Source of the DNA: Planctomycetota bacterium
Lineage (GTDB): Bacteria > Planctomycetota > UBA8108 > SXIK01
NCBI GenBank assembly: GCA_965223845.1
Contig: CBDCXR010000004.1
Coordinates: 5,792,001 to 5,856,000, forward strand
Length of the DNA: 64,000 bases
Direction: 5' to 3'
Positions 2,165 through 57,216 of the stretch are shown here, one piece after another. Positions within the stretch are counted from its first letter, which is position 1. Every line of letters starts with the position of its first letter. A program made the translations under genes and the position numbers. The notes beneath the pieces are model-generated. The model had not been told where the DNA came from. It made no database searches and saw only the letters and a program-made list of their open reading frames with translations.

Positions 2165-2235
2165 TCGACGGCGGTCGAGACCGACTCTGGTCGCCACGGA
2201 CCCGAGAGCAGCGAAGTCGATCATGGAACTACGGC

Positions 2236-7260: not shown

Positions 7261-7397
7261 CTTCGTCCGCCGCCGCGCGCCCGTCCGTGATCGCTCTCGG
7301 GTGACGGCCTGCTCGCCCGAGCTTCAACGAAGATCGAAGAGCTAGCTCGAGACGTCCCCTGAAGAAACTCGATCGGACACTCTCTCGGCTCACCGGC

Positions 7398-13109: not shown

Positions 13110-13418
13110 GTCCCGTTCCCGTTCCCGACTGGGCGAATGGAAACGTCTCCGGGAGCTCGCCGGTCGGTTCTCTCCTCTCGCTCCCCGACGGAATCGGTGA
13201 CGCGGACTGCTTCTCCGGAACTTCGTTGGAAGTCCAAAGGATGGACACCCGGGCGAGCCGAAAAAGTGATCGGACCGACCGTCCGGTGCGACGGTCGGCG
13301 CGAAGGGCTCCGCCGGGGACCTTCGCACGGTCTGAACCTCTTCGTCGACTCTGCACACTCGTTTCCGCTGCGGACGCCCATCCTACGGACGGCCACAACG
13401 TCGATCTGGAGACTGCAC

Positions 13419-14723
13419 ATGCGCTCGCTCAACGTTCTCACCATGATCTTGGCCGGGGGAGTCGGCCAGAGGCTCTTCCCGCTCACGGCGAATCGCTGTA
13501 AGCCCGCGGTGCCGTTCGGAGGGAACTTTCGCATCGTCGACTTCACCCTGATGAACTGTGTGCTCTCCGGTTGCCGGCAGATCCACATCCTGACGCAGTA
13601 CCACGCTCAATCGCTCAATCGCCATCGCGTCGAGCGGTGGAACTGCCTCTCGAGCGAGCTCGGTGAGTACATCCACCTCGTCCCGCCGAAGCTGAACGGC
13701 GCCCACGGCGTCTACCGGAGTACGGCCGACGCCGTCTTTCGCAACCTAGACATTATCGAATCGTCGCGGCCGGACGTCGTCCTCATCCTTTCGGGCGATC
13801 ACGTCTACCGAGCCGACTACCGTAAGCTCATCGAAGCGCACCTCGACCGCGACGCTGACGTCACCGTCCTCACGGGCGAAGTCGACGTCAACGACGCGTC
13901 GGCGTTCGGCTGCGTGCAGCTCTCTCCCCAAGGCCGCATCACGAGCTTCGTCGAGAAGCCGAAGGATCCGAGTCCGTACGCGCTCGATGGAAAGTGCCTC
14001 ATCAACCTCGGCGTCTACTGTTTCCAAACCCGCTATCTCGCCAAGGCTCTCCGCGAAGACGCCCGCCTGCAGGATTCAACGCACGATTTCGGGAAGGACA
14101 TTCTTCCGCGTGCGCTCCGGCGCGGATTCGTGTCATCCTGCGGTCTCGAAGTCGTCACGCCGGACGGCAGCTCGTACTGGCGGGACGTCGGGAGCATCGA
14201 CAGTTACTTCCAGGCGAATATGGATCTCCTCGCGCGCACGCCGCTCTTCGATCTCCGCGACACGCGTTGGGCGTCGTGCTCGCGATTCCACGAATGGGTA
14301 CCGTCGCGCCACACGGTGACGGCGACGATCGGCGGCCGGAAGATGCAGGGATCCAATTTGATCGGAACCGGCGTTCACATCGACAACGCGCAGATCGTGA
14401 ACAGCGTGCTCTCCAATCGAGCGGAAGTCGGTACCGGATCCGAGCTCGAGCAGTGCATCCTCTTTCCCGGTGCGCGCGTCGGCCGCGGCGCCAAGCTGCG
14501 CCGAGTGATCGTCGAGCAAGGAGTCGAAATCCCGGACGAGACGGTCATCGGCTTCGACAAGACGGACATCGCGGGACACGTGATTTCGCCGAACGGCGTC
14601 GTCGTCGTCGCTCCGCCGGAGACGGTGGTGACCGAGAGCCCGATCGAAGCAAAGGCCGAGGATTTCGACGCGGTGGGAAACGGAGCCGAGCCGCGGCTGA
14701 ACGTCGCCGAGCTGACGAGCTGA
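13419..14723 (+). CDS. glgC: Glucose-1-phosphate adenylyltransferase (ADP-glucose pyrophosphorylase)
   Basis: ILAGGVGQRLFPLT..RCKPAVPFGG, LSGDHVY, FVEKP, HDFGKDILP, YWRDVGSIDSY, C-terminal left-handed beta-helix; GGAG RBS before ATG 13419. Confidence 0.92.
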   Translation: MRSLNVLTMILAGGVGQRLFPLTANRCKPAVPFGGNFRIVDFTLMNCVLSGCRQIHILTQYHAQSLNRHRVERWNCLSSELGEYIHLVPPKLNGAHGVYRSTADAVFRNLDIIESSRPDVVLILSGDHVYRADYRKLIEAHLDRDADVTVLTGEVDVNDASAFGCVQLSPQGRITSFVEKPKDPSPYALDGKCLINLGVYCFQTRYLAKALREDARLQDSTHDFGKDILPRALRRGFVSSCGLEVVTPDGSSYWRDVGSIDSYFQANMDLLARTPLFDLRDTRWASCSRFHEWVPSRHTVTATIGGRKMQGSNLIGTGVHIDNAQIVNSVLSNRAEVGTGSELEQCILFPGARVGRGAKLRRVIVEQGVEIPDETVIGFDKTDIAGHVISPNGVVVVAPPETVVTESPIEAKAEDFDAVGNGAEPRLNVAELTS

Positions 14724-14846: not shown

Positions 14847-16685
14847 CTATTTCTTCATGAGCCGCTCGACCGCGCGGCGAAGGATCATTCGATCCATGTC
14901 TCGCGGATCGGCGACGTAGAAGGCGATCGCCCCTTGCCGATCGAGCACGATGCACGAAGCGCTCGGCCCGATCGTCGCGTGCACCTCTTTGAAAAAGGAT
15001 TGGCGCTCGCGATCGGGATCGATTCCCGCTGGAAGCCCGATTCCCTGCGCCTTCGCTTCGTCGCGTAGGTTGCGAAGCTTCTCCGCGTCGCGCCCGGGAT
15101 TCGGTTTTCCGACGACGTACGTGACCAGCGCTCCGGCGACCTTGTCGGGGTTCTCCGCAGCGAGGCGCCCCGCTTCCTGAGCGAACGTGAGCGAGCGGAG
15201 ATCACCGGGCGTGCGAAACATAAGAATCACGACCTTGCCGCGCGAGTTCGCGAGGCTGAGCTTCTCTTCGGTCGCCCAGTAGGAGCCGAAGTCGAGGTCG
15301 AGCGTGGGCACCTTGCCGTGGTAGTCGTCGAGGTGGAGAAGGAGATCGCGCGTGCGATAGTCGAGCGTGATCGCGACGACTTGGTCGAGCTTCTTCCCTT
15401 CGGCGTCGAGCTTCGCCTTGAGGCTCTCGACCTGCGCGACGTGCGCTTCGAAGGACTCGCGCGCGCCGTCGATGTCCCCGCGAGCGAAGCGGCAGTACCC
15501 GATCCAGAAGTGCGCGACGTTGTACCACTGCGCGTACTGGACGCGGAGGTAGTTCCGCCGGACACTCTCGGCTCGGAGGGGATACTCGACGAGGATGCCT
15601 TCCATGAGCTCCTCGATCTCTTCGAGACGAGCCGTCCCGAGCATCCCCTGGTAGAGGACGATGTTGTAGATCGCGAGCTCATCGTCTGCGTCGCGCTCCT
15701 TCGTGACGCGCTTCGCGAAGTCGTACGCTTCCTGATAGCGACCCTGGCTGATGAAGGAGCGCCCGTGCGAATAGATCACGTCGCCGAGAAGATCGAACTT
15801 CGGAAACTCCTTCTCGAGCATGGCGGCGTACTTCCGAAGCGAATCGAAGTCGCGCTGCCGCTCGGTGATCTGGACGAGAAGACGGAGCGCCTCGGCGCGG
15901 ACCTCGCGCTTGTCGAGCTTCGTCGCTGAGCTCTCCTCGGCGAACTTCTTCGCGCTGTTGAGATACTCTTCGCTCCATGCAGCGAGTCTTTCGCGATCGT
16001 TTTCGAACTCGCGCCGCTTCGCATGCTGCACGCGCGCGAAGCGCCCGAGCACCATGCGGGAGAGGATGCCCTTGATCTCCGTGTCGAGTTCCCCGCCGCC
16101 GCAGTCTTTGAGAAAGCGCTCGCAAACGGCGATGCAATCGATCATGTCTCGATCGATCTCATCCGGTTTCCGTTGCATATCACGAAAGAACCGCGGCACT
16201 CCGGAGGAGAGCGATCGAGCTGTGATGAAGGCCTCCCGACACTCGGCTGAAAGTGCGAGAACGAGCTCGTTCGTCTTTGGGTACGGCACCGCGCTCTCCG
16301 CGTTCGGTGTCGTTTCGCCGCTCGTAGCGGCCGGCGAAACGACCACCGTGGTCGCGGAAGAGTCGTCGGCGCTCGTCCCGTCGGCTTGGGCGGCAGGCGT
16401 CGCTTCAGCCGGCTTCGCCGCCGGTGCCGCTGGATCGTTCACTGTGTCGCCGGACGTCGCGCTCTTCGCAGGCGCCGGATCCGTCGCCGGCGCGATCGGG
16501 CTCGGTTCTCCGCGCTTGCAAGCCCCGACGCCGAATCCAACCGCGACCGCGAGTGCGGCGCAGCCGATGATCCGCGTCGAAGCGCGGCGCTCGCGCTGGT
16601 GTTCCTTGCGCCCCGTCCGAACGCGCGTTTCGACGCCAGCGAGGCGGGTGAGGAAACAACCGCTACGAGCGGTGGACGAATTCAT
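14847..16685 (-). CDS. Putative lipoprotein with TPR-like helical region and C-terminal thioredoxin-like domain lacking CxxC
   Basis: AAGGAG RBS before ATG 16685; hydrophobic stretch ending VGVGAC (lipobox-like); Ala/Pro linker; helical repeats; LSLANSRGKVVILMF and IVLDRQGAI resemble TlpA/ResA. Confidence 0.7.
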   Translation of the reverse strand: MNSSTARSGCFLTRLAGVETRVRTGRKEHQRERRASTRIIGCAALAVAVGFGVGACKRGEPSPIAPATDPAPAKSATSGDTVNDPAAPAAKPAEATPAAQADGTSADDSSATTVVVSPAATSGETTPNAESAVPYPKTNELVLALSAECREAFITARSLSSGVPRFFRDMQRKPDEIDRDMIDCIAVCERFLKDCGGGELDTEIKGILSRMVLGRFARVQHAKRREFENDRERLAAWSEEYLNSAKKFAEESSATKLDKREVRAEALRLLVQITERQRDFDSLRKYAAMLEKEFPKFDLLGDVIYSHGRSFISQGRYQEAYDFAKRVTKERDADDELAIYNIVLYQGMLGTARLEEIEELMEGILVEYPLRAESVRRNYLRVQYAQWYNVAHFWIGYCRFARGDIDGARESFEAHVAQVESLKAKLDAEGKKLDQVVAITLDYRTRDLLLHLDDYHGKVPTLDLDFGSYWATEEKLSLANSRGKVVILMFRTPGDLRSLTFAQEAGRLAAENPDKVAGALVTYVVGKPNPGRDAEKLRNLRDEAKAQGIGLPAGIDPDRERQSFFKEVHATIGPSASCIVLDRQGAIAFYVADPRDMDRMILRRAVERLMKK

Positions 16686-44996: not shown

Positions 44997-47015
44997 TCAC
45001 GGTCTGCTGATCCAGACGGGCGACGACCACGCCATCACGGGAAGTCCGCGCACTAGGTTCTTCTGGCGCACGCGGACGTAGTAGATCGTCTGTCCGCTCG
45101 CTCGCCGATCGCGATGCTCACCGCGAAACTCTGCGGCGTGCGGCGTCCAGCGATGCGCGACCGCGAACGCGTCGTCGCCGGCCCGGTAGCGGAGGATCTC
45201 GACCAGGACGATCTCGTCGGTCCCCACGACTGCGACTCGAATCGAGTGGTCGTCCGCTTCTTCCTCGCTCGCCGGGACGATCGATCCCATCGGGTGTCCA
45301 TCGACCGTGACCTCGAGAATGATCTTTGCCCCGGTCGTTGCGTAGGTTCTTCGCTCGTAGAGTGCGTCGAAGATGCTCTCTCGTGTCAGCTCTCTCGCGA
45401 AGGCTGCGACGAGACCGTGGTGCGCCTGACCCGGGCGCGCGCGGTGGTCATCGGTCGACGCGATCGCCGAGAGCGCGAGGCCCTCTCGGAGCGCGTCTTG
45501 GAAGTAACTCGGGTAATCGAGACTCGTCGATGGCGCGGTGAAATCGCTCTTCTCGAACGCGAGCGGGTGGTCGGGAGCGAACGTCTCGCTGAGACCGTGA
45601 CCGGAGTAGATCTCGAAGTTCCGGCGGTGCTCGGAGTTCTGCGGATAGAACGTGATGCCGCTCGGGAACTTTCCCGTGTGGTGCGGAATCGTAAGGGCTT
45701 CGCCCGCCCGGAGCGCGTGCCAGATTTCCGGGAGGCTGGTACGCCCCGGGAAGAAGAGCGGGCCCGGCCCACCGCGAAAATAGATGTTGTGGTGTCCCCA
45801 CGGTCGGCCGAGGGAGCATTCGTACGCGTGGAGCGTGACGAATTCGCCTGGCGCGTGGTGGGCGTCTGTGAGGGCGGTGTACTCGTCGTAGTTTCGGTGT
45901 GAGAGACCGGAAGACGCACCGTCCCGTCCACCGTTCATCGCGTGATCGGTCATCGCGTAGAAGTCGAGCGCCGCGACATCGCGCGCGTACTCGAACGAAC
46001 GATCGCCGACGCCGTCCCAACTGAAGTGGGTGTGCGAGTGGAGATCGCCCCAGTAAATGCGTCGTTCGGGCGTCGCCTCTCCTACGCGGGCGGGATTGCT
46101 CGTCGCGGTGAGATCGAGACCGACCGCTTCGGCGTCGATGCGGACGATTCCCGCCGCGCGGGGGAGCAGCTCGAAGCGCGCGTGACCGCCGGCGAGCGTG
46201 ATCGTCTCCCGCACGGAGATCTGACCCGATCGCCGCGCGAGACGAACGACCGCCGGCGTGGAGACGGGATTGCTCTCCTTGTCGAGAAGTGAGACGCGTC
46301 CGGAGAGCGGTTTTCCGGCGACTCCATCGGAGGAGAGATGCACGAAGAGCTCGACCGGCTTTCCCGCACGCGCGGTGAGAGTCGCACGTCGACTCGTGTG
46401 GAGGCGAAAGCGACTCGTTGCCGTCGAATCGACCGCGACGAGGATCGGCTCCGGACCCGTGCTGATCGCCGCGGCGCGATAACCGCGACTTCCGCTCGAA
46501 CGGTCGCCGTAGACGACGCGGATTTCGTCGCCTTCCTGGAGGTCGCCATCGGCAACGTGGATGCGAACGACGAATACGTAGCGTTCACTCCGGCCGTCGA
46601 GCGAGCGCTTTCGGTGCTTGACGAGCCGGTGCGCGACTTCGCGTTCGACAACGGTGACGAGGCGGACGCTCTCCCGCGACGCGCTCGCGCTCACGTAGTG
46701 ATCGTCCTTTGGGTCGGTCGCTTGGAGACGGTTCGCCGAGTTGCGCGGGCCTGCGTGCCAAGCGTCGGAAAGCTGGAGGCGGATCCCACCGCCCTGCGGG
46801 ATGCCTGGCGCACCGATAACGTACCGCACGGTCCACGTGCCGAACTCGCCGCTCACGCCGTGATCCGGATCGACGTGGAGCGAGCCCGCGCTCGTCGGCT
46901 CGGGATCGATGAGCGGCGGCGGAAGGCGCGGGCGGTCGTCGGCGCGGGCGATCGTGCCGATCAGGACGACCGCCAGCCGCGAAGCAAAGAGGAGAAGAGT
47001 CGAGGGAGTTCGCAC
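44997..47015 (-). CDS. Secreted DUF3604/PHP-like metallohydrolase
   Basis: YWGDLHSHTHFSWDG, AMTDH, AYE, GHHNIYF, IPHH, EIYSGHG, ASTDDH, RRTYATTG, YYVRVRQ, AWSSPVW; signal-like start at GTG 47015. Confidence 0.85.
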   Translation of the reverse strand: MRTPSTLLLFASRLAVVLIGTIARADDRPRLPPPLIDPEPTSAGSLHVDPDHGVSGEFGTWTVRYVIGAPGIPQGGGIRLQLSDAWHAGPRNSANRLQATDPKDDHYVSASASRESVRLVTVVEREVAHRLVKHRKRSLDGRSERYVFVVRIHVADGDLQEGDEIRVVYGDRSSGSRGYRAAAISTGPEPILVAVDSTATSRFRLHTSRRATLTARAGKPVELFVHLSSDGVAGKPLSGRVSLLDKESNPVSTPAVVRLARRSGQISVRETITLAGGHARFELLPRAAGIVRIDAEAVGLDLTATSNPARVGEATPERRIYWGDLHSHTHFSWDGVGDRSFEYARDVAALDFYAMTDHAMNGGRDGASSGLSHRNYDEYTALTDAHHAPGEFVTLHAYECSLGRPWGHHNIYFRGGPGPLFFPGRTSLPEIWHALRAGEALTIPHHTGKFPSGITFYPQNSEHRRNFEIYSGHGLSETFAPDHPLAFEKSDFTAPSTSLDYPSYFQDALREGLALSAIASTDDHRARPGQAHHGLVAAFARELTRESIFDALYERRTYATTGAKIILEVTVDGHPMGSIVPASEEEADDHSIRVAVVGTDEIVLVEILRYRAGDDAFAVAHRWTPHAAEFRGEHRDRRASGQTIYYVRVRQKNLVRGLPVMAWSSPVWISRP

Positions 47016-47640
47016 GGGAGGTCGTCTTCCGGGTGGGGAGATTCGGCGGAAAGCTCGGATTGTACTACGTGAGTCGTCGTTCGACCCGCGGAGGCCGGAT
47101 CGTCTCCGCGCGTGCGATCCGGATGGATCTCGCTTCGAGGTCGACCTGCAACGACCCGTACTCCTGCAAACAAAACTCAAACTGGGCCAGCCGCGTCCGT
47201 GAGCTGCCAGTGCCGCCCCGATGGATCCGACCGCCGGCGCGAACGCGACGTATCCCGAAACGCGCGACCGAAACCACGGATGATGTCGACCGGGCCCTCG
47301 CGAATCCCTCATCGAAAGACGTGAGTCGATCTACGGGCCGGCTTCGCGTGCTTGGTCGCGCGGCGAACAACCGGTTCATCATCGCCGTTCGCAAAGACGT
47401 CGACGATGACGCCGCAGTTCCCGTGACCGCCGACGAAGTTCCTCGAGCCGTGCTTCTACGGGTACCGATGGCGAGGACGAACCTCACCCAATGCCACCGT
47501 CCGATCGGCGACGAGCGCGGCCGAGACGCGGGCGGGGTGAGTCGTCCGGCGGCCGAGACTCGTTCTCGACGGACTCCGGCGCGCTCCGATGCAGCTCGGC
47601 TGCCGTCGTTTACCGCCGAGGCGTCCGGTACGATGCTCTC

Positions 47641-48435
47641 ATGCCCCGAACGCTGTCCCCCACTCTCCCGGAGTGGCTCTACGAGTCCCCGATCGACGGT
47701 TCGCTCCTCGTGCTCGTTCCGGCCGGCGAGTTCGTCGCGGGGGGAAGCGAGCGTCACGAAGGCCGAAGCGGCCGCTTCCCGGTCCAACTGCCGGCGTTCT
47801 ATATCGCGCTTCACGCGGTGACGAACGCGCAGTACCGGCGTTTCCTTCGTGCGGCGGATTATCCTCCGCCGCGTCACGGGGACTTCGGTGATCACGTCTG
47901 GCGCGCGGGCGAACCCGCCGACGACGACTTCGAGGGAAAAGCGCACCACCCGGTCGTCCACGTGACTTGGCACGACGCCGCCTCGTACGCGCACTGGGCC
48001 GGGCTCCGTCTTCCGACCGAGCTCGAGTGGGAGAAGGCCGCGCGCGGGAGCGACGGCCGGCGCTTTCCGTGGGGTGAAGACTGGGATCCCGAGCGATGCC
48101 GAAACGACGAGAGTCGAAGGCGCGAGACGACGAGTGATGTGTGGAGCCATCCCAGGTCGTGCAGTCACTGGGGCTGCTACCAGATGAGCGGGAACGTTTG
48201 GGAATGGTGCGCGGACTGGTTCGCCGAGGACGCCTATCGCCGCTATGCGCGTGGTGAGCGCGCGCCGCCCGAGCGCGGCGAGGAGCGCGTTGTTCGCGGG
48301 GGATCGTGGTTCAACGCCGCGGCGGAGAGCTTCCAGGCTTGCTCGCGCTTCGGGCTCGCGCCGCTCAAGTGCGGGGATCACTACGGGTTCCGGCTCGCGC
48401 TCGATGCTGTGCGCGCTGGCCGAAGAGATGGATGA
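47641..48435 (+). CDS. FGE/sulfatase-modifying-factor-fold protein (non-catalytic type)
   Basis: VTNAQY, HPVVHVTWHDA, RLPTELEWEKAARG, MSGNVWEW, RVVRGGSW, YGFRLA; lacks the FGE active-site Cys pair after RGGS. Confidence 0.9.
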   Translation: MPRTLSPTLPEWLYESPIDGSLLVLVPAGEFVAGGSERHEGRSGRFPVQLPAFYIALHAVTNAQYRRFLRAADYPPPRHGDFGDHVWRAGEPADDDFEGKAHHPVVHVTWHDAASYAHWAGLRLPTELEWEKAARGSDGRRFPWGEDWDPERCRNDESRRRETTSDVWSHPRSCSHWGCYQMSGNVWEWCADWFAEDAYRRYARGERAPPERGEERVVRGGSWFNAAAESFQACSRFGLAPLKCGDHYGFRLALDAVRAGRRDG

Positions 48436-49702
48436 GAACGGGCGTGTGAAACTCTTCAAAGAACCCGAGCTCGACCGGTGGCGCCGCGCTTTTCTCGGTG
48501 AGGGATGGCTCGGCACGTTCGGGCATTGGCTCGCCGCACGCCGGCTGCGCACTCGACTCGACCGGGCGGACGTCGTGTCCGTGCTCGTCGAGGGAACGGC
48601 GAGCTCGCGTTCGCGCGTCCGTGATCGCGCGTCCGAATTGCTGCGCGCACTTCGTGCTCCCGCCGCGATCGAAGCCGCGTGCGAGGCCGCGACCGCAGCA
48701 CCGCGGTCCCCCGTCGCGACGATTTGCATCGAGGAGCGCTTCGAGCCGCGGGACGATGAGCGCGCGAGTCTCTTTCTCTTCGTCACCGGCCAGCTCGATC
48801 GGTACTTCGAGCTCGACGAGGACTTCCGCTTTCTCCGCCCGGCGTTTGACCGCGCGAATGCGACCCTCCGGCGCGATCTCCTCCGCGTCCTTCGGAGCGG
48901 TGATCGGCGGTGTCTCGATTTCTTCACGGCGCGTAAGGCGCTCGCGGAGTGTTCCGGAGTCGAGGTCGAATCTGCGCTCCGGTCGTACTGGAAGCACAAG
49001 GACGGCGCGCGGCTCTTTCGCGCGTGCCTCGAGGTACCGCTTCGCTACGGGCTGCCGTATCTGCAGCGGCTCGCACGCGCGAACTGGGAACCGGACGAGC
49101 CGGAGGCGCGGAGCGCGTTCGCGAAGATCGCGCGCGATCTCGAAGGGCTCATTGCGCCGAGCCCGCGCGCGGAGTCCGCGGCGAGCGCGACCTTTTCGGC
49201 TTGGATCGCAGAGGGTCGAGAACGCTCGAGGTCCGCAGCGACGTCGATCGAAGAACTTCTCGCAGCGCTCGGGGATGCCGCCGAGCCCCGAACGCGCGTT
49301 GCGATCGTGGCCGAAATCGCGGAACGGGCCGAGCTCGGGAGCTTGGCGGCGAAGCGCGTCGCTGAACATCCCGACTGGATGGTTCGCCTTGCCGGGGAGA
49401 CGACTGGACTGACGCTCCGCGCAGACGTCGACGAGTCGCCCGACGAAATCTATTGGGTCCGCCGACTCGCACCGGAGTATCCGGTTCTTCAGATCGCGCC
49501 TGCGAAGGCGACGCCCGCGCTTCTCGACTCGCTCGAAGAGACGCGCCCCGAACTGTGGACGGGGCCACTCGGCGTCGCACGGCGAGTCCTTCAGACGCTC
49601 ATGGCCTACCGAGTGACGACGGGGAGCTTCGACGAGGTCGCTGTCGATGTCGGCGCGTACGACGGTGAGTTCGAGCCGATCGAGGACGGGAGCGAGAGAT
49701 GA
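48428..49702 (+). CDS. Hypothetical alpha-helical (HEAT-like) protein
   Basis: Overlaps both neighbours; Leu/Ala/Arg-rich helical composition; LFLFVTGQLDRYFELD segment; acidic C-terminus. Confidence 0.7.
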   Translation: MDENGRVKLFKEPELDRWRRAFLGEGWLGTFGHWLAARRLRTRLDRADVVSVLVEGTASSRSRVRDRASELLRALRAPAAIEAACEAATAAPRSPVATICIEERFEPRDDERASLFLFVTGQLDRYFELDEDFRFLRPAFDRANATLRRDLLRVLRSGDRRCLDFFTARKALAECSGVEVESALRSYWKHKDGARLFRACLEVPLRYGLPYLQRLARANWEPDEPEARSAFAKIARDLEGLIAPSPRAESAASATFSAWIAEGRERSRSAATSIEELLAALGDAAEPRTRVAIVAEIAERAELGSLAAKRVAEHPDWMVRLAGETTGLTLRADVDESPDEIYWVRRLAPEYPVLQIAPAKATPALLDSLEETRPELWTGPLGVARRVLQTLMAYRVTTGSFDEVAVDVGAYDGEFEPIEDGSER

Positions 49703-51324
49703 CGACCTCGATCGCCGTCGACTTCGGGACGAGCAGCACCGCAATCGCGCGGCGCGCCGGCGACGCGGCCCCGCGGACGATCGAGATCCCGGGGATCACG
49801 CGCGCCGTGCGGTTTCGTCGCCGGCGTGACGAGGACCCGGAGACGGCGCATCTCATCCCGTCCGTCATCCACTACGCCGATGGGAAGACGCTGATCGGTG
49901 AGCAGGTCTTCGCGGCGGGCCTCATCGATGACCGAAACACCTGGCGCTGGATGAAGCGGAGCATCGCACTCGGCGCGAACAAGCGAAAGCGCACGCCGCA
50001 AGGTGAGAAGGGCGCGGCCGACGCGGGCGAGGATTTTCTTCGGCTCGTCCTTCGGTACATCTCCGCAGACGTCGCTCTCGATAGCGAACAATTCGTGTTT
50101 ACGGCGCCCGTTGAAGCGTTCGAGGATTTTCAAGATTGGCTTCGCCGGGTCGCCGAGCGCGCCGGGATCGGGCGCGTCCGCATGCTCGACGAGCCGACGG
50201 CGAGCATCCTCGGTTACGAGGGCGCCGTGCGCGAAGAGGATCGCTTCCTCGTTTTCGACTTCGGCGGCGGAACGCTCGACGTCTCTGCCGTGCGGATCGA
50301 TCTCGACGCGAACGACGGCAAGACCGCCGTCCAGCTCGGCCAGGCGGGAAGCGAGCTCGGCGGGATGGACATCGACGGCTGGATCGCGGACGACCTCCTC
50401 GCGCGAGAGGACTTGACGGCGAGCGAGCGAAAGGACGTGCGCCCGGCGGTCCTCTCGGCGGCCGAACGAACGAAGATCGAGCTCTCCGCTCCCGGGAGCG
50501 AGACCGCGGAGCTGTCGTGTTCCGTCGCCGGGCGTGACTTTCGCATGATCTATCGGCGCTCGTGCGAGCGCTGCGCGAGCGGCGATCGTCCGGAGCCGAG
50601 TGAACGCGCTGCGCGCGAAGCCTGTCTCGGCTGTCTCTTATCCTCATCGGACTTTTCCCGGCGCGTACGCGACACCATCGACCGGGCTCTCGAGAACGCG
50701 GCGATACACTCGGGACTTCGCCGGGGCGACCTGAGCGCGGTCGTGCTCACCGGCGGAACGAGTCTCGTCCCGGCGGTGAGGCGTGTTCTCCTCGATGCCT
50801 TCGCCGACAAGGTGAGGCTCGACAGTCCGTACGACGCGGTCGTCCGCGGCGCGCTCGCGGGCTGGGTCGCGCCGCGACTCCAGCACGACTACGCGATCGA
50901 GAGCTTTAGCCGCGAGCGCGGGGAGTTCGAGTTCCGGCCGTTGTTTCGCACGGGAACACCGTACCCTTCGCCCCCGAACGCCGCGCAGTTTTGGGCGAAG
51001 GGAAGCTACGACGGCATGACGCGAATCGGCATCCTTGTCTTCGAGGTCTCGGAGATGACGGAGCGCGTGTTCGACGTCGCCCTCGTCGATGAAACGGGCG
51101 CGCTCCGCGATACGAGTCGCGTGCGAACGGACCGGCGGTACATCTGTCTAAATCGCGACAACCCGACCTTTATCGTCGCGGATCCACCGATCGATCTCGC
51201 GCGCGACGCCGAGCGGTTTCGGTGCAGCTTCGCGGTCGACGGACACCGGCGGCTTCTCGTCACAGTACGGGATGAGATGACGGGAGCGGTGCTCTTCGAG
51301 GGGCACCCGGTGGTTCGGTTGTAG
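49699..51324 (+). CDS. Atypical Hsp70-family protein
   Basis: VDFGTSST, EPTASILGY, VFDFGGGTLDVS, LGGMDID, AERTKIELS, LTGGTSLVPAV, AVVRGA; short beta-rich C-terminus, no DnaK lid. Confidence 0.9.
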   Translation: MTTSIAVDFGTSSTAIARRAGDAAPRTIEIPGITRAVRFRRRRDEDPETAHLIPSVIHYADGKTLIGEQVFAAGLIDDRNTWRWMKRSIALGANKRKRTPQGEKGAADAGEDFLRLVLRYISADVALDSEQFVFTAPVEAFEDFQDWLRRVAERAGIGRVRMLDEPTASILGYEGAVREEDRFLVFDFGGGTLDVSAVRIDLDANDGKTAVQLGQAGSELGGMDIDGWIADDLLAREDLTASERKDVRPAVLSAAERTKIELSAPGSETAELSCSVAGRDFRMIYRRSCERCASGDRPEPSERAAREACLGCLLSSSDFSRRVRDTIDRALENAAIHSGLRRGDLSAVVLTGGTSLVPAVRRVLLDAFADKVRLDSPYDAVVRGALAGWVAPRLQHDYAIESFSRERGEFEFRPLFRTGTPYPSPPNAAQFWAKGSYDGMTRIGILVFEVSEMTERVFDVALVDETGALRDTSRVRTDRRYICLNRDNPTFIVADPPIDLARDAERFRCSFAVDGHRRLLVTVRDEMTGAVLFEGHPVVRL

Positions 51325-51454
51325 GGCGAAGAGAATCGCGTACGGCGGAAGAGGCTCGGTGAAGGACGAATGGACTCCCGATGGCTCGAGTTATCGGACG
51401 CGATTCGCCTTCGAGCAGTCCAGTCCGCAAACCGGCGCCCGCTCCCGACCGACG

Positions 51455-52063
51455 ATGAGAGAAACCCCCTCGCCCCTCGCCGCGATCGGAGACCGACCCG
51501 CCATGCCCCCGCTTCCTCGTTCCGCCCGCATCTTGCGCTCGGCCGTGCTCGCCGGCGGCCTCGCGTTCCTCGTTGCTCTCGCCACGCCCGGCTGCGGCGG
51601 CTCCGCTGCCTCGGCCCCGCCGCCGTGGCTTCTCTCCGCCGAGGTCGACGGCGCGCCCAACATCGCGCCGCTTCACGTTTGGAACGTGTACCTCTACGAC
51701 AACTCGGCGGTTCCCGAAGACTTCGAGTTTCTCGGCGAAGGCATCGCGCTCGTCGGCCGGATCCCGAAGGATCTCAGCGTCGGCTACGCGGAGAACTGGG
51801 AGAAGCTCCTCGGAAAATCGCTTCCGATCTCGCGCTCGGGCGGCGATCCGCGCGCGCGGAAGGAGTCGTACATCGAGTTCACGGGTCACCGCCGCTGGGA
51901 AGTGCGCGGCGGTGAGATCCTCCCCGAGAAACTGAGCGGGTCGAAGGCGGGAAGCGAAGGTGATCGAACGCTTTCGGGTCGGCTGCGCGTACGCGTCCTC
52001 ACGCCGCTCGGGGAAAAGACGATCGAAGGAACGTTCGCGATCCAGGTTGTGAGTTGGGGCTAA
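51455..52063 (+). CDS. Hypothetical lipoprotein (start uncertain)
   Basis: Hydrophobic AVLAGGLAFLVALATPGC then beta-rich domain; typical codon usage. Confidence 0.65.
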   Translation: MRETPSPLAAIGDRPAMPPLPRSARILRSAVLAGGLAFLVALATPGCGGSAASAPPPWLLSAEVDGAPNIAPLHVWNVYLYDNSAVPEDFEFLGEGIALVGRIPKDLSVGYAENWEKLLGKSLPISRSGGDPRARKESYIEFTGHRRWEVRGGEILPEKLSGSKAGSEGDRTLSGRLRVRVLTPLGEKTIEGTFAIQVVSWG

Positions 52064-52214
52064 CGAGAAAACCTCGGGGCGTCCGCGAACCCTGAGCTCG
52101 TCTCGGTACCCGTTCCCGAAACGGACGAGCTAGCGGGCTAAGTTAGCGGACCCACTCCGCGCCTCCGAGATCCACCGCCGAACCGGTTGTCGTCTCCCGC
52201 CCCCATCCCCGAGA

Positions 52215-53753
52215 ATGAGGGCGTCTCCCCAACCGACCGGGCTCGCACACGTGGATCTCCAACAAGAACTCGCCGCACTTCTCGGCGCGGGCATCCCCCT
52301 CGTCCATCTCGTCACCTACGAAGAGGAGCGCGTCGTTCGCCTCCTCGAAGGGATCGAACGCGCCGAAGGGCTCGGTCTCGCGACCTGGGACGCGGCGGAC
52401 GGCTTCTCGGTCATTCGCGAAGGCCGGGAGCCGTTCCCCGTGAAGGACTGCACGTCCGACACCGTGCTCCCTCACCTAGCCGAGAAGATGCCGCCTGGCG
52501 GGATCGTCGTCCTGCGTGACTTTCATCACGCGTGGTCACAAAAGCGCGGCTACGTCACACGAAAGCTCCGGAACATGGCGCCGGAGCTCCGCGCGAAGTC
52601 GCAGTTTCTCTTTTTCACGTCGCCCGTCGCCGAGGTTCCCGTCGAGCTGAAGGACGATCTCGTCGTCGTCCACGTTCCGCTTCCGACGACGGACGAGCTC
52701 GATCTCCTCTTCGAGACGGTGACGGCGCGGCTTCCGCGGGACGTCCTCCCGGCGCCGCCCGTCCGCGCGAAGCTCATCGCTTCGGCACTCGGCCTCACGA
52801 CGAACCAAGCGCGTCTTGCGTTCTCGCGCGTTATGGCACGCTATGAGCGATTCGACGAGCGCGGGATCGAGGTCGTCACCTGGGCGAAGCGAGAAATCAT
52901 CCGCGAGAGCGGCGCGCTCGAGTTCTGGCCGATCAGCGATGCGGACACCCAAGTCGGCGGCCTCGACGTCCTCCGCGAGTGGCTGAAGAAGCGCGCGCTC
53001 GCGTACACCCCCGAGGCGCGCCGCGCGAAGGTGCCGTTTCCGCGAGGAGTTGTGCTCATAGGGATTCCCGGCACGGGAAAGAGCCTCACCGCAAAGCTCC
53101 TCTCTCAGCTTTGGCGCATGCCGCTCCTTCGCCTCGACGTCGGCGCGGTCTTCGGTGCGCTCGTCGGTGAATCGGAGAAGAACATGCGCCGGGCGATCGA
53201 GCTCGCCGAGACGGTGAGTCCGTGCATCCTCTGGATCGATGAGATGGAGAAGGCGTTCGCGGGATCGTCGACGGCGTCGGCGCACCTCTCGAGCGGCGTC
53301 GGAACGCGCGTCTTCGGGACGTTCCTCACCTGGATGCAGGAGCATCGCTCGCCCGTCTTCGTGCTCGCGACGGCAAACGAGATCGCGGGGCTGCCGCCCG
53401 AGCTCATCGGGCGGTTCGATCGGACGTTCTTCCTCGACTTGCCCACCGAGAGCGAGCGGCGGCAGGTGTTCGCCATTCATCTCAAGAAAGCGGGCGAAGC
53501 CTTCCCCGAGCGGCGATTCGACTTGGGCGCGCTCGCCCATCGAGCGGAGGGATTCGTCGGGCGCGAAATCGAGCGGGTCGTGCGCGAAGCGCAATTCACG
53601 GCACTCGCCGGCGGCAACCGGGAGATCGAGGAAGACGACCTCACGCAGGCGCTCGAGGAAGTGGTTCCGCTCAGTCGTTCTCACCGCGAGGTGATCGACG
53701 GACTCCGGCGCTGGGTGCGGGAAGGCCGGGCTTTCCCGGCTTCGGGGGCTTGA
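52215..53753 (+). CDS. Ycf46-like AAA+ ATPase
   Basis: Degenerate N-terminal AAA-like region (TYEEER, LRDFH); VGGLDVLREWL, Walker A GIPGTGKS, RLDVG, Walker B WIDEMEKAF, TWMQE, ATAN, GRFD. Confidence 0.92.
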   Translation: MRASPQPTGLAHVDLQQELAALLGAGIPLVHLVTYEEERVVRLLEGIERAEGLGLATWDAADGFSVIREGREPFPVKDCTSDTVLPHLAEKMPPGGIVVLRDFHHAWSQKRGYVTRKLRNMAPELRAKSQFLFFTSPVAEVPVELKDDLVVVHVPLPTTDELDLLFETVTARLPRDVLPAPPVRAKLIASALGLTTNQARLAFSRVMARYERFDERGIEVVTWAKREIIRESGALEFWPISDADTQVGGLDVLREWLKKRALAYTPEARRAKVPFPRGVVLIGIPGTGKSLTAKLLSQLWRMPLLRLDVGAVFGALVGESEKNMRRAIELAETVSPCILWIDEMEKAFAGSSTASAHLSSGVGTRVFGTFLTWMQEHRSPVFVLATANEIAGLPPELIGRFDRTFFLDLPTESERRQVFAIHLKKAGEAFPERRFDLGALAHRAEGFVGREIERVVREAQFTALAGGNREIEEDDLTQALEEVVPLSRSHREVIDGLRRWVREGRAFPASGA

Positions 53754-53762
53754 GTCTTTTCT

Positions 53763-54100
53763 TGAGGTGAAGATTTCACACGAAGAACGCGAAGTTTCGC
53801 GAAGGAAGACGAAGGAGGAGATATGAAGTTGGTGGGAGAATAAGTGGGGAGAGCGAGAATACATCCATCATCGGGATGGATCCGGGAGTACCGCAGAATA
53901 GTTGTCACGCGATCCCGTTCCCCCTCTCGGCGAAGAGAAAGCCAAGGACGAGGAGACTCGATTGCCGGGGAGAAAAAACGCGTTGCGTGCGAGTCGCGCA
54001 CGACCGACCCTCTTCTCCAATTTGCGTTTTTTCTCTTTCTCTCTTTCCCTTCGTCTTTCTTCGCGTCCCCTTCGCGCCCTTCGTGTGAACCGCTTCCTCA
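53763..54100. repeat. Long imperfect inverted repeat (CACGAAG/CGCGAAG units) bracketing the AAA-DUF1257 intergenic region
   Basis: Left arm 53775-53815 TTCACACGAAGAACGCGAAGTTTCGCGAAGGAAGACGAAGG. Reverse complement of right arm 54048-54089 is TTCACACGAAGGGCGCGAAGGGGACGCGAAGAAAGACGAAGG. Outer TGAGG/CCTCA also pair. Confidence 0.85.
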
Positions 54101-54102
54101 GA

Positions 54103-54492
54103 ATGTCCCACTTCGTCAGAATCCGCACCCAGCTGAAAGAACGAGCCCCTCTCCTCACCGCGCTTCGAGACCTCGGATTCACGACGCGCGAAGGGGAGGC
54201 GATCGAGCTCCGCACTGACGGCCGGGAGGAAGCGGCCGCCGAGATCGTCGCCGCCACCGGCTGCGAGTACGAAATCGGCTTTCGGAAGGTCGGCGATACC
54301 TACGAAATGATCGCCGACTGGTACAACGTCGAGCGCCACACTCCGCATCGTCGGCAAGTGTTCATCGACGCGCTCCGGCAACGCTACGCCTATGCGATCG
54401 TTCGCGAGCAAGCGCGTGCGCAGAATCTCATCGTCGAAGAGGAGACGGATGCGAACGGCGACATCGTCATCGTTCTCTCCGAGCGCGGATAA
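54103..54492 (+). CDS. DUF1257 (Ycf35-like) protein
   Basis: MSHFVRIRTQL...LLTALRDLGF...YEIGF...YEMIADW...QRYAY...GDIVIVL. Confidence 0.92.
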   Translation: MSHFVRIRTQLKERAPLLTALRDLGFTTREGEAIELRTDGREEAAAEIVAATGCEYEIGFRKVGDTYEMIADWYNVERHTPHRRQVFIDALRQRYAYAIVREQARAQNLIVEEETDANGDIVIVLSERG

Positions 54493-54495
54493 GCG

Positions 54496-54693
54496 ATGAA
54501 GAAGATCCGAATCGTCCTCCGAAAGGATGGCTCGCAGTCGCTCGAGGTGATCGGCGCCGAAGGGGATGAGTGCATCGAGCTCACCGCTGAGCTTGAGCGT
54601 CGCCTCGGCTCGATCGATGGTGTGCGCGAGCTGAAGCCGGAGTTCGACGCGGAGACGACCGGTACCGACGAGTCCGAGGTCGAGCACGAATGA
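54496..54693 (+). CDS. DUF2997 small protein
   Basis: IRIVLRKDG...EVIGAEGDECIELTAELERRLG...RELKPEF. Confidence 0.9.
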   Translation: MKKIRIVLRKDGSQSLEVIGAEGDECIELTAELERRLGSIDGVRELKPEFDAETTGTDESEVEHE

Positions 54694-55283
54694 TGCACGG
54701 CGGGGCTCGATCCACCGGCGATGCGGGCGTAAACGTGCGCGTTCACGCGGTCGAGCCGCGGAGTCGCGCGAACGGTCCGGGCATTCGCACCGCGATTTGG
54801 CTTCAGGGCTGCAGTCTCGGGTGCCCGGGCTGCTTCAACCCGGAGACGCACGAACCCCCGGGCGGGACGAGCTGGACGACCGCTCGGCTCAGCGAGTGGA
54901 TCATCGCTCAGAAGAATGCCGTGGAAGGCGTGACCTTTTCGGGTGGCGAGCCTCTCGAGCAGTCCGCCGCTCTCCTCGACATTCTCGAGCGCATCGACGG
55001 ACTCGGCCTCTCCGTCGTGCTCTTCAGCGGCTTTCGTCTGGCGGAGATCGTCGCTCTCCCGTTCGGCGCGCGGGTGCTCGAGCGGGTCGACGTGCTCGTC
55101 GCCGGACGCTACGACGTCCGCCGGCGTACGGCGCGCGGGCTCCTCGGCTCCGCGAACCAGACCGCGTATTTCCTCACGGACCGCTACTCACCGGCTGACC
55201 TCGAGCGCGTCCCCCGCCGCGAGTTGATCATCCGGCGTGACGGCACCGTGACGGCGAGCGGGATCGATCCGGTTCGTCTCTAG
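54690..55283 (+). CDS. NrdG-like radical SAM (4Fe-4S single cluster) protein
   Basis: ANGPGIRTAIWLQGCSLGCPGCFNP (CxxxCxxC), GVTFSGGEP, VDVLVAGRY, GSANQ. Confidence 0.9.
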   Translation: MMHGGARSTGDAGVNVRVHAVEPRSRANGPGIRTAIWLQGCSLGCPGCFNPETHEPPGGTSWTTARLSEWIIAQKNAVEGVTFSGGEPLEQSAALLDILERIDGLGLSVVLFSGFRLAEIVALPFGARVLERVDVLVAGRYDVRRRTARGLLGSANQTAYFLTDRYSPADLERVPRRELIIRRDGTVTASGIDPVRL

Positions 55284-55398
55284 ATCGTCCCGGTTCGCCG
55301 CGCCGAACGGACCCATCGCAGCGGCACCGACCGCGCCGACTCGAATCCCGGCTCGAAGTTGCGCGAGCACCTAGGCGGTGGCCGGAGTTTGAAGAACG

Positions 55399-57216
55399 CT
55401 ACTCGCTCTTCCGGATCAGCTCGATTTCGACTTCGTATTCGCCTCGAGGCAAGTTCGGAGAGAGTTCCGCCGTCTCGAAACCCTTCGCACTCACTTGCAG
55501 CCGGTGTTCCCCGGGCCCGAGGTGTGAGAAACGAAACTCTCCGCGCGCGTTCGTGACCGTTCGCCGGCGCGAGGAGGACGAGACCACCTCGTCGGTGTAC
55601 GTCCAGAGGAGTAAGACGTTTCCTCCTGCGAGCGGTTGACCGCTTTCGGTGACGGCCGTGCCGAAGAGCGTGCGTTCGCCGCGATCGACCACGAGAAAGA
55701 CTTCGCGGACTTGCTCCGCATCGAGATCGATGCCGCTGATCACCGTTGGTGGCGAAGGCGATTCGAACACGATCGAACCCGCGGGGACGCCGTCGACTTC
55801 GAAGCTGCCGTCCGTGCGCGCGACGAACGCTCTTCCCTGCTCGGCGGCCGCGTCACTGGTCGCGGTGAGCTTCACTTGGGGGACGGGATTCCCTTCGACA
55901 TCGATCACCCGGCCGACGAGGCGTCCGTAGCCGACCTCCTCGAGCGCGATCGGGAGCTCGACGTGGGGGGACGCGATCACGAAGTCGCGAGTAGTGAAGT
56001 CGCGAAACATTCGCCGGGGCTGCACCCAGACGTGGTAGTCCTCGGCGTACGGCACGGCCCGAAACTCGAACTCGCCGCGCACACCGGCGACCGCGCGCGC
56101 TTGGAAGCGTCGCGAGGATGATGCGATGCGAATCTGCTGACCGAACGCAGGCGCGCCCGTGGGCGTGACGATCGTGCCCGAAAGCGTGGCGGAGTTCCGC
56201 AGGACACGCAGCTCGGCGTGGAGAAAGAACCCCTGACTCACGGCTTCTGCGTCGAACGCGACGACGTGACTCTTCGGCTCGTACCCCTCGTGCTCGAAGC
56301 GGAGAGTCCGCTGTCGCGGGGCGTTCGCTGCAAACGCGAGCTCGAGCGAGTATCGGCCGGAGTCGTCGGTCTTCGAGGACTGCTTCGGTGATCCGAGTGC
56401 GCTGATCTCGACCCCCGCGAGCGGGAATCCGTCTTCGTCCTTCACGACGCCTTCGACGTGAATCCATTCGTTCTTTGCGACGACGATCGCGACACCTGAA
56501 TCACCCCCGCTCGTCAGGACGGAAGCGCTCGGATAAGACTTCGTCTCCACCGTACGGAGCTCGTACGGGCCATCGGCTAGGTTCGCGAATCTGAACGCGC
56601 CGCTCGAGTCGGTGACGACGGAAGGATCGTCGAGTTCGCGGAGTTCGTGCTCGAGCCCGAGGATCTGTCGTGCGGCGACGACGACCATGCGCTCGACCGG
56701 TTCGCCGGCGGGATCGAGGACCTGTCCGGTGATGGCGCGATCGAAAAGGGGCGCCGTGATCTCGAGGCGGCGGTACTCTCCGTCTTCGAGCTCGATCCGA
56801 ATCGCCGACGTGAGTCGCGGCCGGTCGGAAGCGTCGACCGTGAGCGCGTAGCTCCCCGCGGGGATGGGCGCCCAGTCGACGCGTCCGAGGCCGTCCGTGC
56901 GGGCGGGACGATTTCGCCGCCCGTCCATGAGCGTGACGCGCGCCCCCGCCACGGCGGTTCCGTCCGGGGAGGTGAGAATGACTTCGATCGCGCCGCCCGT
57001 GCCGATCCCGGCGGACGCGACGGGGTCGCCGTCGCTATCCCCGTCGCGCGTGCGCGAACCGATCGCGGGGAGTGCTCTCCCGGAGCGGTGGCGTCCTCCT
57101 CCGACGGACGGACGATCGCGGTCGCTGTGCGCGTCGCCGGTCTTCTCTCCACCGAGCCAAATCGCCCCGACGACGGCGATGACGGCGACCGGCACAATCC
57201 AGTAAAACGGTCTCAA
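55399..57216 (-). CDS. Membrane-anchored carboxypeptidase-regulatory-like (Cna-B/Ig) repeat protein
   Basis: N-terminal TM; about 6 repeats of G.V.D..G.P....V / TD..G.F.F..L..G.Y. Confidence 0.85.
   Translation of the reverse strand: MRPFYWIVPVAVIAVVGAIWLGGEKTGDAHSDRDRPSVGGGRHRSGRALPAIGSRTRDGDSDGDPVASAGIGTGGAIEVILTSPDGTAVAGARVTLMDGRRNRPARTDGLGRVDWAPIPAGSYALTVDASDRPRLTSAIRIELEDGEYRRLEITAPLFDRAITGQVLDPAGEPVERMVVVAARQILGLEHELRELDDPSVVTDSSGAFRFANLADGPYELRTVETKSYPSASVLTSGGDSGVAIVVAKNEWIHVEGVVKDEDGFPLAGVEISALGSPKQSSKTDDSGRYSLELAFAANAPRQRTLRFEHEGYEPKSHVVAFDAEAVSQGFFLHAELRVLRNSATLSGTIVTPTGAPAFGQQIRIASSSRRFQARAVAGVRGEFEFRAVPYAEDYHVWVQPRRMFRDFTTRDFVIASPHVELPIALEEVGYGRLVGRVIDVEGNPVPQVKLTATSDAAAEQGRAFVARTDGSFEVDGVPAGSIVFESPSPPTVISGIDLDAEQVREVFLVVDRGERTLFGTAVTESGQPLAGGNVLLLWTYTDEVVSSSSRRRTVTNARGEFRFSHLGPGEHRLQVSAKGFETAELSPNLPRGEYEVEIELIRKSE

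Follow-up and report, generated by a model that had tools for sequence, protein, structure and literature searches.

A conserved gene cluster joining an FGE-type lectin-fold protein and an Hsp70-like ATPase to an AAA+-DUF1257-DUF2997-radical SAM core in a Planctomycetota genome

The gene cluster

The window considered here is a stretch of 64,000 nucleotides (nt) from the genome of a Planctomycetota bacterium (GenBank assembly GCA_965223845.1, contig CBDCXR010000004.1, positions 5,792,001 to 5,856,000), and its positions 47641-55283 hold the cluster under study, made of eight co-oriented open reading frames (ORFs) on the plus strand and enclosed by minus-strand genes at 44997-47312 and 55399-57216 (Table 1). 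In order, the products are a protein with the fold of formylglycine-generating enzyme (FGE), a helical protein, an Hsp70-like ATPase, an orphan protein, an AAA ATPase (AAA1), a DUF1257 (Ycf35-type) protein, a DUF2997 protein, and a small radical SAM enzyme. The first-pass annotation of this DNA, made from the sequence alone, had described eight co-oriented genes with overlaps of -8 and -4 bp at one end and couplings of +3 and -4 bp at the other, and the ORF lists confirmed it; the continuity of the block has to be qualified, because a gap of 349 nt divides the AAA gene from the DUF1257 gene.

Regarding domain content, six Pfam families scored above cut-off among the eight proteins, and the equivalog matches in NCBIfam were all sub-threshold. 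The GC content is even over the region (0.63-0.69), no Rfam match was obtained at E ≤ 1 over 47000-55600, and a promoter scan of the locus found no promoter-like sites; terminator-like sites were at chance level (7 found, 6.3 expected in shuffles), with one such hairpin after the AAA gene.

Table 1. Features of the cluster in the window, followed by the retroelement repeats of three related loci (positions within each locus)
Feature	Position	Strand	Details
FGE-fold gene	47641-48435	+	264 aa; Pfam FGE-sulfatase 4e-54
Helical protein gene	48428-49702	+	424 aa; 8-nt overlap with FGE gene; sub-threshold HEAT_2
Hsp70-like gene	49699-51324	+	541 aa; 4-nt overlap with helical gene; Pfam HSP70 2e-20
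Orphan ORF	51503-52063	+	186 aa; 178-nt gap after Hsp70 gene; no Pfam family
AAA gene (AAA1)	52215-53753	+	512 aa; 151-nt gap after orphan ORF; Pfam AAA 5e-26 and AAA_lid_3
Structured intergenic region	53754-54102	+	349 nt, before DUF1257 gene
DUF1257 (Ycf35-type) gene	54103-54492	+	129 aa; Pfam DUF1257 3e-17
DUF2997 gene	54496-54693	+	65 aa; 3-nt gap after DUF1257; Pfam DUF2997 6e-10
Radical SAM gene	54690-55283	+	197 aa; 4-nt overlap with DUF2997; Fer4_12 4e-28 and Radical_SAM
L013 template repeat	3749-3877		Variable repeats 3018-3143 (14/15), 4809-4935 (13/14), 10922-11051 (15/16); mismatches at template adenines
L011 template repeat	876-1004		Variable repeats 109-240 (18/19), 4933-5056 (22/25); mismatches at template adenines
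L024 template repeat	2125-2258		Variable repeats 3180-3308 (17/18), 1410-1546 (22/23); mismatches at template adenines

Conservation of the cluster in other genomes

A search of 185,579 species genomes, with an Hsp70 alignment as query, returned 80 loci; the close set consists of 17 (L008-L024), in which the protein is 47-55% identical to that of the window, and it is distributed over Planctomycetota (8), Hydrogenedentota (3), Acidobacteriota (3), Myxococcota/'Deltaproteobacteria' (2), and one unclassified genome. The other genes were located by tblastn with the window proteins and with the extra genes of the loci, and the contig ends were checked to establish where each gene could be assessed. 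The helical gene lies upstream of the Hsp70 gene in all 16 assessable close loci, and AAA1, 56-67% identical, lies downstream of it in 14 of 15, with L010 as the exception; the DUF1257 gene is present in 13 of 15 (absent from L010 and L017), 11 of 15 have the DUF2997 gene, and a radical SAM gene was located in 10 of all 17, several loci ending too early. Flanking genes vary from locus to locus, an upstream DUF3604 gene being common to L017 and the window. That the Hsp70 block and the AAA-DUF block form one system is supported because seven of the eight genes of the window recur together elsewhere. The first-pass annotation had named in advance the co-occurrence of these blocks in other genomes as decisive for its proposal, and they were found in the same order in most related loci, spread over at least four phyla.

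Within the window's own phylum the Hsp70-like protein is rare, with matches at E ≤ 1e-20 in 3 of 300 other sampled genomes, and the one close match came from G128, a genome of the same order as the window's. Its locus has the FGE, helical, Hsp70, AAA, DUF1257, and DUF2997 genes in the order of the window and with 40-62% identity, and the stop of the Hsp70 gene is 4 nt away from the start of the AAA gene; methionine-salvage genes lie upstream and an M61 peptidase gene downstream. The G128 locus contains neither an orphan ORF nor a radical SAM gene, and the orthologue of the latter, 46% identical, is on another contig.

As for the outgroups, two loci with a more divergent Hsp70 (L025 and L026, 34-37% identity) likewise combine Hsp70 and GrpE with DUF1257 and a radical SAM gene, and L025 has DUF2997 too; both loci are devoid of FGE genes. 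In L025, the solenoid protein is fused to a WD40 propeller (L025:6785-8554), and a HEPN-domain gene follows Hsp70 (L025:11670-12185); both features fit a swappable sensor domain and a conflict context.

The remaining 61 loci (L027-L087, 25-31% identity) represent a separate Hsp70-like clade, with no match to the helical, DUF1257, DUF2997, or radical SAM proteins of the window. In 33 of them, Hsp70 is followed by one to five tandem paralogues with HEAT repeats (e.g., L065:10001-18579); these loci come from Myxococcota, Acidobacteriota, Spirochaetota, Planctomycetota, and cyanobacteria, and have no AAA-DUF block. When viral contigs were searched with the window query, no member of the close Hsp70 clade turned up, the best match having 27% identity.

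Additional genes of the fuller loci

The genes that other loci have in addition to those of the window were found by comparative clustering of all the ORFs of the 19 closest loci, followed by Pfam and NCBIfam searches. Of 16 assessable close loci, 13 have a GrpE gene, which separates the helical gene from Hsp70; a second AAA paralogue (AAA2) occurs in 11 of the 17, a Ser/Thr kinase fused to a third one (kinase-AAA3) in 8, and a gene for a protein of 74 amino acids, placed before the first FGE gene, in 9. Six of the 17 encode a reverse transcriptase (RVT_1, 2e-24) and five have Avd-type four-helix-bundle genes, with the L013 protein passing the NCBIfam model DivGenRetAVD (108.8, cut-off 80). 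FGE-fold genes are present in 16 of the 17 close loci, with one to eight copies per locus, and the paralogues within one locus are 64-88% identical in DNA. No J-domain protein was matched among the cluster proteins scanned, in the window or in its relatives, and no vWA domain either; a MoxR-vWA-VMAP set is thus missing.

The FGE-fold protein and the diversity-generating retroelement

Self-comparison of the loci identified the repeats of a diversity-generating retroelement (DGR): seven template/variable pairs in three of the six loci with a reverse transcriptase (Table 1), in which the variable repeats are the ends of FGE genes and the L013 template is rich in AAC codons. The mismatches fall almost only at adenines of the template, and this pattern in the FGE gene ends identifies the FGE-fold proteins as the variable proteins of the DGR; from these sequences, the FGE-fold proteins of the system are taken as its variable ligand binders. 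One variable repeat of L013 belongs to the FGE gene between Hsp70 and AAA1, and therefore the retroelement services genes that are inside the ATPase block.

The FGE-fold protein of the window was compared with the solved FGE structures 6muj, 5nxl, and 6s07, where their ...LCH.SYC... segment faces a gap and an alanine; both catalytic (copper-binding) cysteines are missing, and judging from its sequence the window protein cannot work as a formylglycine-generating enzyme. It matches the variable protein TvpA of Treponema (2y3c, 1.3e-12), and its identity to the FGE genes that adjoin a helical gene, as in L009 and L017 among others, is 47-55%. The C-terminal part can be aligned to the variable regions found in L013, L011, and L024, and the C-terminal tip resembles the fixed tips of L009 and L017. 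The window protein is thus predicted to be a ligand-binding sensor with a fixed C-terminal tip, and the recognition role that the first-pass annotation had assigned to the FGE fold is well supported, given the missing catalytic cysteines and the orthologues that are DGR variable proteins.

Some of the FGE-fold paralogues (13/43) share a peptide at the N-terminus, of the form (P)VL(S/T)P.DF ([VILT]L..[DN][FY]), which may be a docking or recognition tag. Ten of these 13 directly follow Hsp70, AAA2, kinase-AAA3, or DUF1257 (examples are L016:7504-8304, L016:12308-13099, L016:15544-16377, L020:9867-10688, and L020:14984-15724); the tag is found in none of the six FGE copies that come after the small upstream gene, and it is not in the copy of the window.

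The minimal copy of the window

The genome that contains the window is 92% complete, in four contigs. RVT_1 was not found in it (positive controls matched), and the L013 reverse transcriptase used as query gave no match there; no template/variable repeat pair was detected in the 64-kb window, and the FGE 3' end has no duplicate elsewhere in the genome. The locus has one FGE gene only, out of 28 FGE-domain matches in the whole genome. GrpE, AAA2, and kinase-AAA3 are absent from it, and so are Avd and the small upstream gene; neither GrpE nor DnaJ was matched among the eight proteins. Searches for remnants of FGE, Avd, GrpE, and the reverse transcriptase, made between the genes and within the orphan ORF, returned noise only (all E ≥ 0.03).

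A quick tree of the Hsp70-like proteins (27 rows, after dropping three partial ones) placed three sequences, those of the window, L009, and L017, as basal branches of the clade (approximate likelihood ratio test, aLRT, 100); the fuller loci belong to a group of 12 members (aLRT 96) from which these three are excluded. Since GrpE is present in the outgroups, this gene was lost in the lineage of the window. Since its genome has no reverse transcriptase, the window copy is a minimal, retroelement-free, fixed-specificity version of the system.

The helical protein and the Hsp70-like ATPase

The structural model of the helical protein is an all-alpha solenoid of about 26 helices (pLDDT 79.9, pTM 0.44), for which Foldseek returned only weak armadillo/alphaRep rows (best E 7.5e-3, TM 0.12-0.14). 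The family comprises 143 representatives at E ≤ 1e-30, many of them longer and some sharing only the N-terminal half. By its model, the protein is an ARM/HEAT-like solenoid; it is the constant partner of the Hsp70-like ATPase and is predicted to be an adaptor or co-chaperone.

As for the latter, which falls in a clade with aLRT 100, the profile matches the nucleotide-binding domain of DnaK over residues 50-388, extending to about 450 with some chains; the alignment to full-length DnaK ends around residue 450 of 541 and leaves the lid without a counterpart. From the alignments, the protein appears to consist of the nucleotide-binding domain and of a short, conserved, beta-rich C-terminal domain that lacks a lid. 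The columns of the ATPase motifs are invariant in 17 sequences, including D8, G10, T14, D187-F188-G189, G191, and G352-G353, which we take to be the phosphate-binding and adenosine motifs.

The AAA1, DUF1257, DUF2997, and radical SAM proteins

AAA1 is an AAA+ protein of the classic clade with an N-terminal domain of about 260 residues; it matches PF00004, AAA_lid_3, and models of the CDC48/FtsH type, and it is 37-41% identical to the AAA2 and AAA3 paralogues. Metagenomic homologues are abundant (60-74% identical), and their names are at the family level only: the label 'Ycf46-type', proposed in the first-pass annotation, has its counterpart in source names of the 'SpoVK/Ycf46/Vps4 family' alone, whereas other homologues are called 'AAA family ATPase' or 'MoxR-like ATPase'. 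Walker A, Walker B, and the Arg-finger region can be made out in the AAA1 sequence, and with the invariant motif columns of the Hsp70-like protein both ATPases look active. AAA1 forms the hinge common to the Hsp70 and DUF blocks.

Regarding DUF1257, 15 of 17 aligned sequences open with MSHF and close with LSERG (the LSERG codons of the window are at 54478-54492), and a G-F pair within 'DIGFRR' is invariant in the alignment; either the LSERG end or this pair could be a recognition or modification site. As a glycyl-radical site the pair is conceivable but unsupported; none of the fold matches listed resembled a glycyl-radical domain. The model of DUF1257 (pLDDT 88.2, pTM 0.79) has a common two-layer alpha/beta arrangement; the best fold matches, BamC with Foldseek (5.5e-3) and an AMPK/KA1-type domain with VIA-align (Z 6.8, root-mean-square deviation 3.1 over 77 residues), are middling and assign no function. 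The DUF1257 gene of L015 (L015:13754-14143) contains one in-frame stop at codon 112, which could reflect a pseudogene, a sequencing error, or read-through. DUF2997 has an acidic tail, and the pattern KDG..EV.G..G..C...T...E.RLG is conserved in 13 sequences.

In the radical SAM enzyme, the C-x3-C-x2-C motif (QGC...C.GC) and NGPG.R are conserved in 11 sequences. The best NCBIfam model is NrdG (TIGR02491), with a score of 97.9 and a cut-off of 126.1, and the other activase models are further below their cut-offs; a glycyl-radical enzyme is not encoded in the cluster, and Gly_radical (PF01228) and NRDD (PF13597) had no match in the window genome, where positive controls were matched. The NrdG-type label of the first-pass annotation has to be qualified by this sub-threshold score.

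Interpretation

The reading that we prefer, though with reserve, is that the cluster is one system and a minimal, retroelement-free member of a conserved family, whose contents are FGE-type C-lectin binders; a private chaperone set, made of an Hsp70-like ATPase, its ARM/HEAT-like adaptor, and in most cases GrpE; and the AAA+-DUF1257-DUF2997-radical SAM core. This architecture suggests a protein-recognising surveillance machine. The lectin-fold protein would bind, in the cytoplasm, one particular macromolecule, in all likelihood a protein that is foreign or non-self; the solenoid would couple it to Hsp70; Hsp70 and the AAA+ ATPase would then hold, unfold, or relay the bound target, and the DUF1257-DUF2997-radical SAM core, as the conserved part with an executive or regulatory task, would act downstream of them, one of the system's own proteins being presumably the substrate of the radical SAM enzyme. 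The window copy would have hard-wired rather than hypermutable specificity. This scheme is modelled on the way in which DGR-diversified C-lectin domains have been read, as sensors in NTPase conflict systems, in passages of PMC7159879 and PMC10907252.

Several observations weigh against this reading. The parts of the system can be uncoupled: L010 has no AAA gene within 9.7 kb downstream of Hsp70, and L017 keeps FGE, helical, Hsp70, and AAA only, the locus stopping after AAA, with DUF1257 and the radical SAM gene not found anywhere in its 9.2-Mb genome. The dependency is also one-sided, in that the AAA-DUF core mostly occurs without this Hsp70; DUF1257 was found in 29 of the 300 other genomes of the phylum, and Hsp70 adjoins it in G128 alone (1/29). 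Regarding a role in defence, PADLOC recognised no described system among the window proteins, with generic matches only (IetA and TRIP13 for the AAA domain, pVip for the radical SAM protein at 7e-5, and PDC-M61B for Hsp70 at 1e-3), and none among the proteins of the relatives, where generic kinase and reverse transcriptase models matched; the flanks of the window cluster are housekeeping-type genes and not a defence island. The canonical pore loop of AAA proteins is aromatic-hydrophobic-Gly, and because this position of AAA1 reads L-V-G, substrate threading by this protein is uncertain. To these points are added the features that the window copy is missing, namely the reverse transcriptase, the repeat pair, further FGE genes, GrpE, AAA2, and kinase-AAA3.

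The main rival is a chaperone role towards the lectin-fold proteins themselves, which we judge unlikely: a private Hsp70, solenoid, and GrpE, together with the AAA+ proteins, would fold, buffer, assemble, or recycle clients destabilised by hypermutation, and the window would be a relic serving one fixed protein. A report of DnaK as a source of mutational robustness (PMC5630943) is in line with it, as is the layout of the fuller loci, where each ATPase gene tends to precede its own FGE paralogue, the number of FGE paralogues scales with that of ATPases, and the tagged paralogues mostly stand behind ATPase or DUF1257 genes. Such a role fits poorly with the AAA-DUF1257-DUF2997-radical SAM core, which is widespread without a lectin-fold gene or a retroelement, and with the outgroup loci that have no FGE genes; moreover, the window and two relatives retain their ATPases though the lectin-fold tip is no longer hypermutated, and in other DGR systems the C-lectin fold is not known to need dedicated chaperones in order to tolerate massive variation. 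Signalling or kin recognition, whereby the system would sense self, kin, or an environmental ligand and regulate physiology or development, is quite improbable in our view. The output would be the kinase-AAA fusion, and this has in its favour the presence of the fusion in 8 of the 17 loci and the type of carriers, which are large-genome Planctomycetota, Myxococcota, Acidobacteriota, and Hydrogenedentota; sections of PMC10907252 raise kin recognition as an alternative role of DGR-diversified sensors, and PMC4284462, in the part consulted, places DUF2997 and ycf35 beside the ferredoxin gene fed7 in cyanobacteria. The version in the window, however, has no kinase, and the cluster includes no conserved transcription factor or second-messenger enzyme.

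Two further explanations appear very improbable. In one, FGE-helical-Hsp70 and AAA-DUF1257-DUF2997-radical SAM would be unrelated modules adjacent by chance, as could be argued from the gaps of 151-349 nt between the blocks, the orphan ORF between them, the terminator-like hairpin after the AAA gene (though such sites are at shuffle frequency), and the DUF core usually occurring without this Hsp70; synteny already contradicts it, since 14 of the 15 loci that could be assessed, in four or more phyla, have the same order and differing flanks, along with the 4-nt spacing of Hsp70 and AAA in G128. In the other, the FGE-fold and radical SAM proteins would be the catalysts of a pathway, such as sulfatase maturation or thiol-histidine chemistry, assisted by the ATPases. 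The FGE fold is indeed common to FGE, EgtB, OvoA, and SenA, all with sub-threshold matches here, and a sulfatase gene adjoins the outgroup locus L025; this scheme is hardly compatible with the absence of both catalytic cysteines of FGE, with equivalog scores all far below their cut-offs, with FGE orthologues that are targets of a retroelement, and with a radical SAM protein of 197 residues and NrdG type, for which no SPASM-type match was listed.

Returning to the preferred reading of a surveillance machine, a bolder and more tentative extension, which we consider possible but doubtful as a whole, is that several phyla share a protein-level, diversifiable immune or surveillance system, in which hypermutated cytoplasmic lectin-fold receptors would hand foreign proteins to the private Hsp70/GrpE/solenoid set and to the AAA+ unfoldases, and the DUF1257-DUF2997-radical SAM core, regarded as one trio with that of plastid and cyanobacterial Ycf46/Ycf35, would execute or license the response. 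The window would then be the germline-fixed version, and the ycf46/ycf35 genes, long without explanation, a housekeeping remnant of the machinery.

Relation to described systems

For conflict systems built on NTPases, sensors of the C-lectin type with hypervariable FGS/C-lectin domains diversified by DGRs have already been proposed (passages of Kaur et al. 2020, PMC7159879, and Dore et al. 2024, PMC10907252), and the former source, in the part covered, also describes Hsp70 with GrpE in GTPase-centred (GAP1-N2) conflict systems. As far as these two texts describe the MoxR-vWA 'ternary' and STAND systems with DGRs, the relatives of the window are similar in pairing a reverse transcriptase, Avd, and a template repeat with FGE-type C-lectin targets, in adding NTP-driven chaperone-like proteins, in having a non-catalytic lectin domain, and in belonging to large-genome, developmentally complex phyla. 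Within the same limits, the differences are several: the cluster family has no MoxR, vWA, VMAP, or STAND proteins, and its NTPases are an Hsp70-like protein, accompanied by GrpE and by an ARM/HEAT partner, and up to three classic-clade AAA+ proteins; the lectin-fold proteins are encoded by standalone genes of about 250 codons, in up to eight copies, and are not C-terminal domains of NTPase partners; the cluster includes the DUF1257-DUF2997-radical SAM core, and the window copy has no DGR.

With the ycf46-ycf35-DUF2997 set of cyanobacteria and red-lineage plastids, the cluster shares DUF1257 and DUF2997 proteins above the Pfam cut-offs, and the DUF1257 positive control was matched in Synechococcus elongatus; DUF2997 and ycf35 are neighbours in cyanobacteria too, according to the portion of PMC4284462 consulted. 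Unlike that set, the cluster is in a non-photosynthetic, Planctomycetota-type genome and is joined to Hsp70, solenoid, lectin-fold, and radical SAM genes. The comparison with DnaK-GrpE-DnaJ, and with the Hsp70-GrpE modules of GAP1-N2 systems as outlined in part of PMC7159879, is favoured by the intact columns of the nucleotide-binding motifs and by the dedicated GrpE of 13 of 16 relatives; in contrast to the DnaK system, none of the clusters examined includes a J-domain protein, the C-terminal domain appears short and lid-less, an ARM/HEAT solenoid is the constant partner, and the window copy has lost GrpE. Finally, the small Fer4_12/Radical_SAM enzyme, with its C-x3-C-x2-C motif and NrdG as best match, resembles the activases of the NrdG-NrdD and PflA-PflB pairs, but it is below the equivalog cut-off and no glycyl-radical enzyme was found in the cluster or in the genome.

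A published description of the Hsp70-DGR-AAA-DUF architecture was not found in a search that covered main texts, and the supplementary tables of the DGR surveys, which were outside it, could list such loci. The searched text of PMC10907252 does not mention Hsp70, chaperones, or radical SAM, and the architecture is absent from the searched text of PMC7159879 as well; a preprint surveying DGRs (10.1101/2020.04.01.020958) has no mention of Hsp70, chaperone, radical SAM, or DUF1257, and among the matches listed none joined 'diversity-generating' with DUF1257, DUF2997, Ycf46, or Ycf35. An Hsp70 and DGR front end on an AAA-DUF core, which we did not find in print, adds a variant to the DGR-linked NTPase systems: the published conflict cores of this kind are MoxR-vWA, STAND, and GTPase, and the cluster contributes an Hsp70-plus-unfoldase architecture.

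The conservation of DUF1257, DUF2997, and the Ycf46-like AAA+ proteins reaches back to the cyanobacterial ancestor of plastids, and they have no known function. Because this core lies directly behind a sensor layer, DGR-hypermutated in relatives, and behind a dedicated Hsp70, it gains a context that can be tested, in which it would act on, or downstream of, specifically bound proteins. Natural minimal sets could serve for reconstitution: the window, with seven conserved genes and no hypermutation, and one relative with four.

The orphan ORF, the structured intergenic region, and other repeats

The orphan ORF matched only itself among 5.8 billion clusters; it belongs to no Pfam, NCBIfam, or PADLOC family and is absent from all 80 related loci, though its GC content at third codon positions is coding-like (0.79). 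The first-pass annotation had called its product a lipoprotein: the signal-like N-terminus ending in ...TPGC is there, but the ORF is a lineage-specific orphan without homologues, and it is probably not a conserved part of the system. After the signal-like segment, at 51620-51655, 12 residues (PPWLLSAEVDGA) resemble the 'P.WL.E..DG' of the FGE N-terminus, a similarity that is not significant (E 0.2-3).

The region between the AAA and DUF1257 genes folds with a minimum free energy of -148.4 kcal/mol (z -5.84), and none of 100 shuffles was as stable; the structure is closed over a long range, with arms at 53775-53828 and 54035-54089. It matched nothing in Rfam, its sequence is not conserved at the other loci, and it is possibly a leader or regulatory RNA specific to the locus of the window.

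Several related operons contain intergenic repeat families of 70-300 nt that do not have the adenine-mismatch signature; they are located in L015 at 3935-4077, 8872-9195, 9778-9900, 11680-11937, and 15002-15191, in L013 at 9921-10223 and 13214-13534, and in L011 at 3583-3649 and 7299-7406. Elsewhere in the window, two pairs of direct repeats were noted, 11649-11949 with 12620-12920 at 68% and 11238-11315 with 12239-12316 at 82%.

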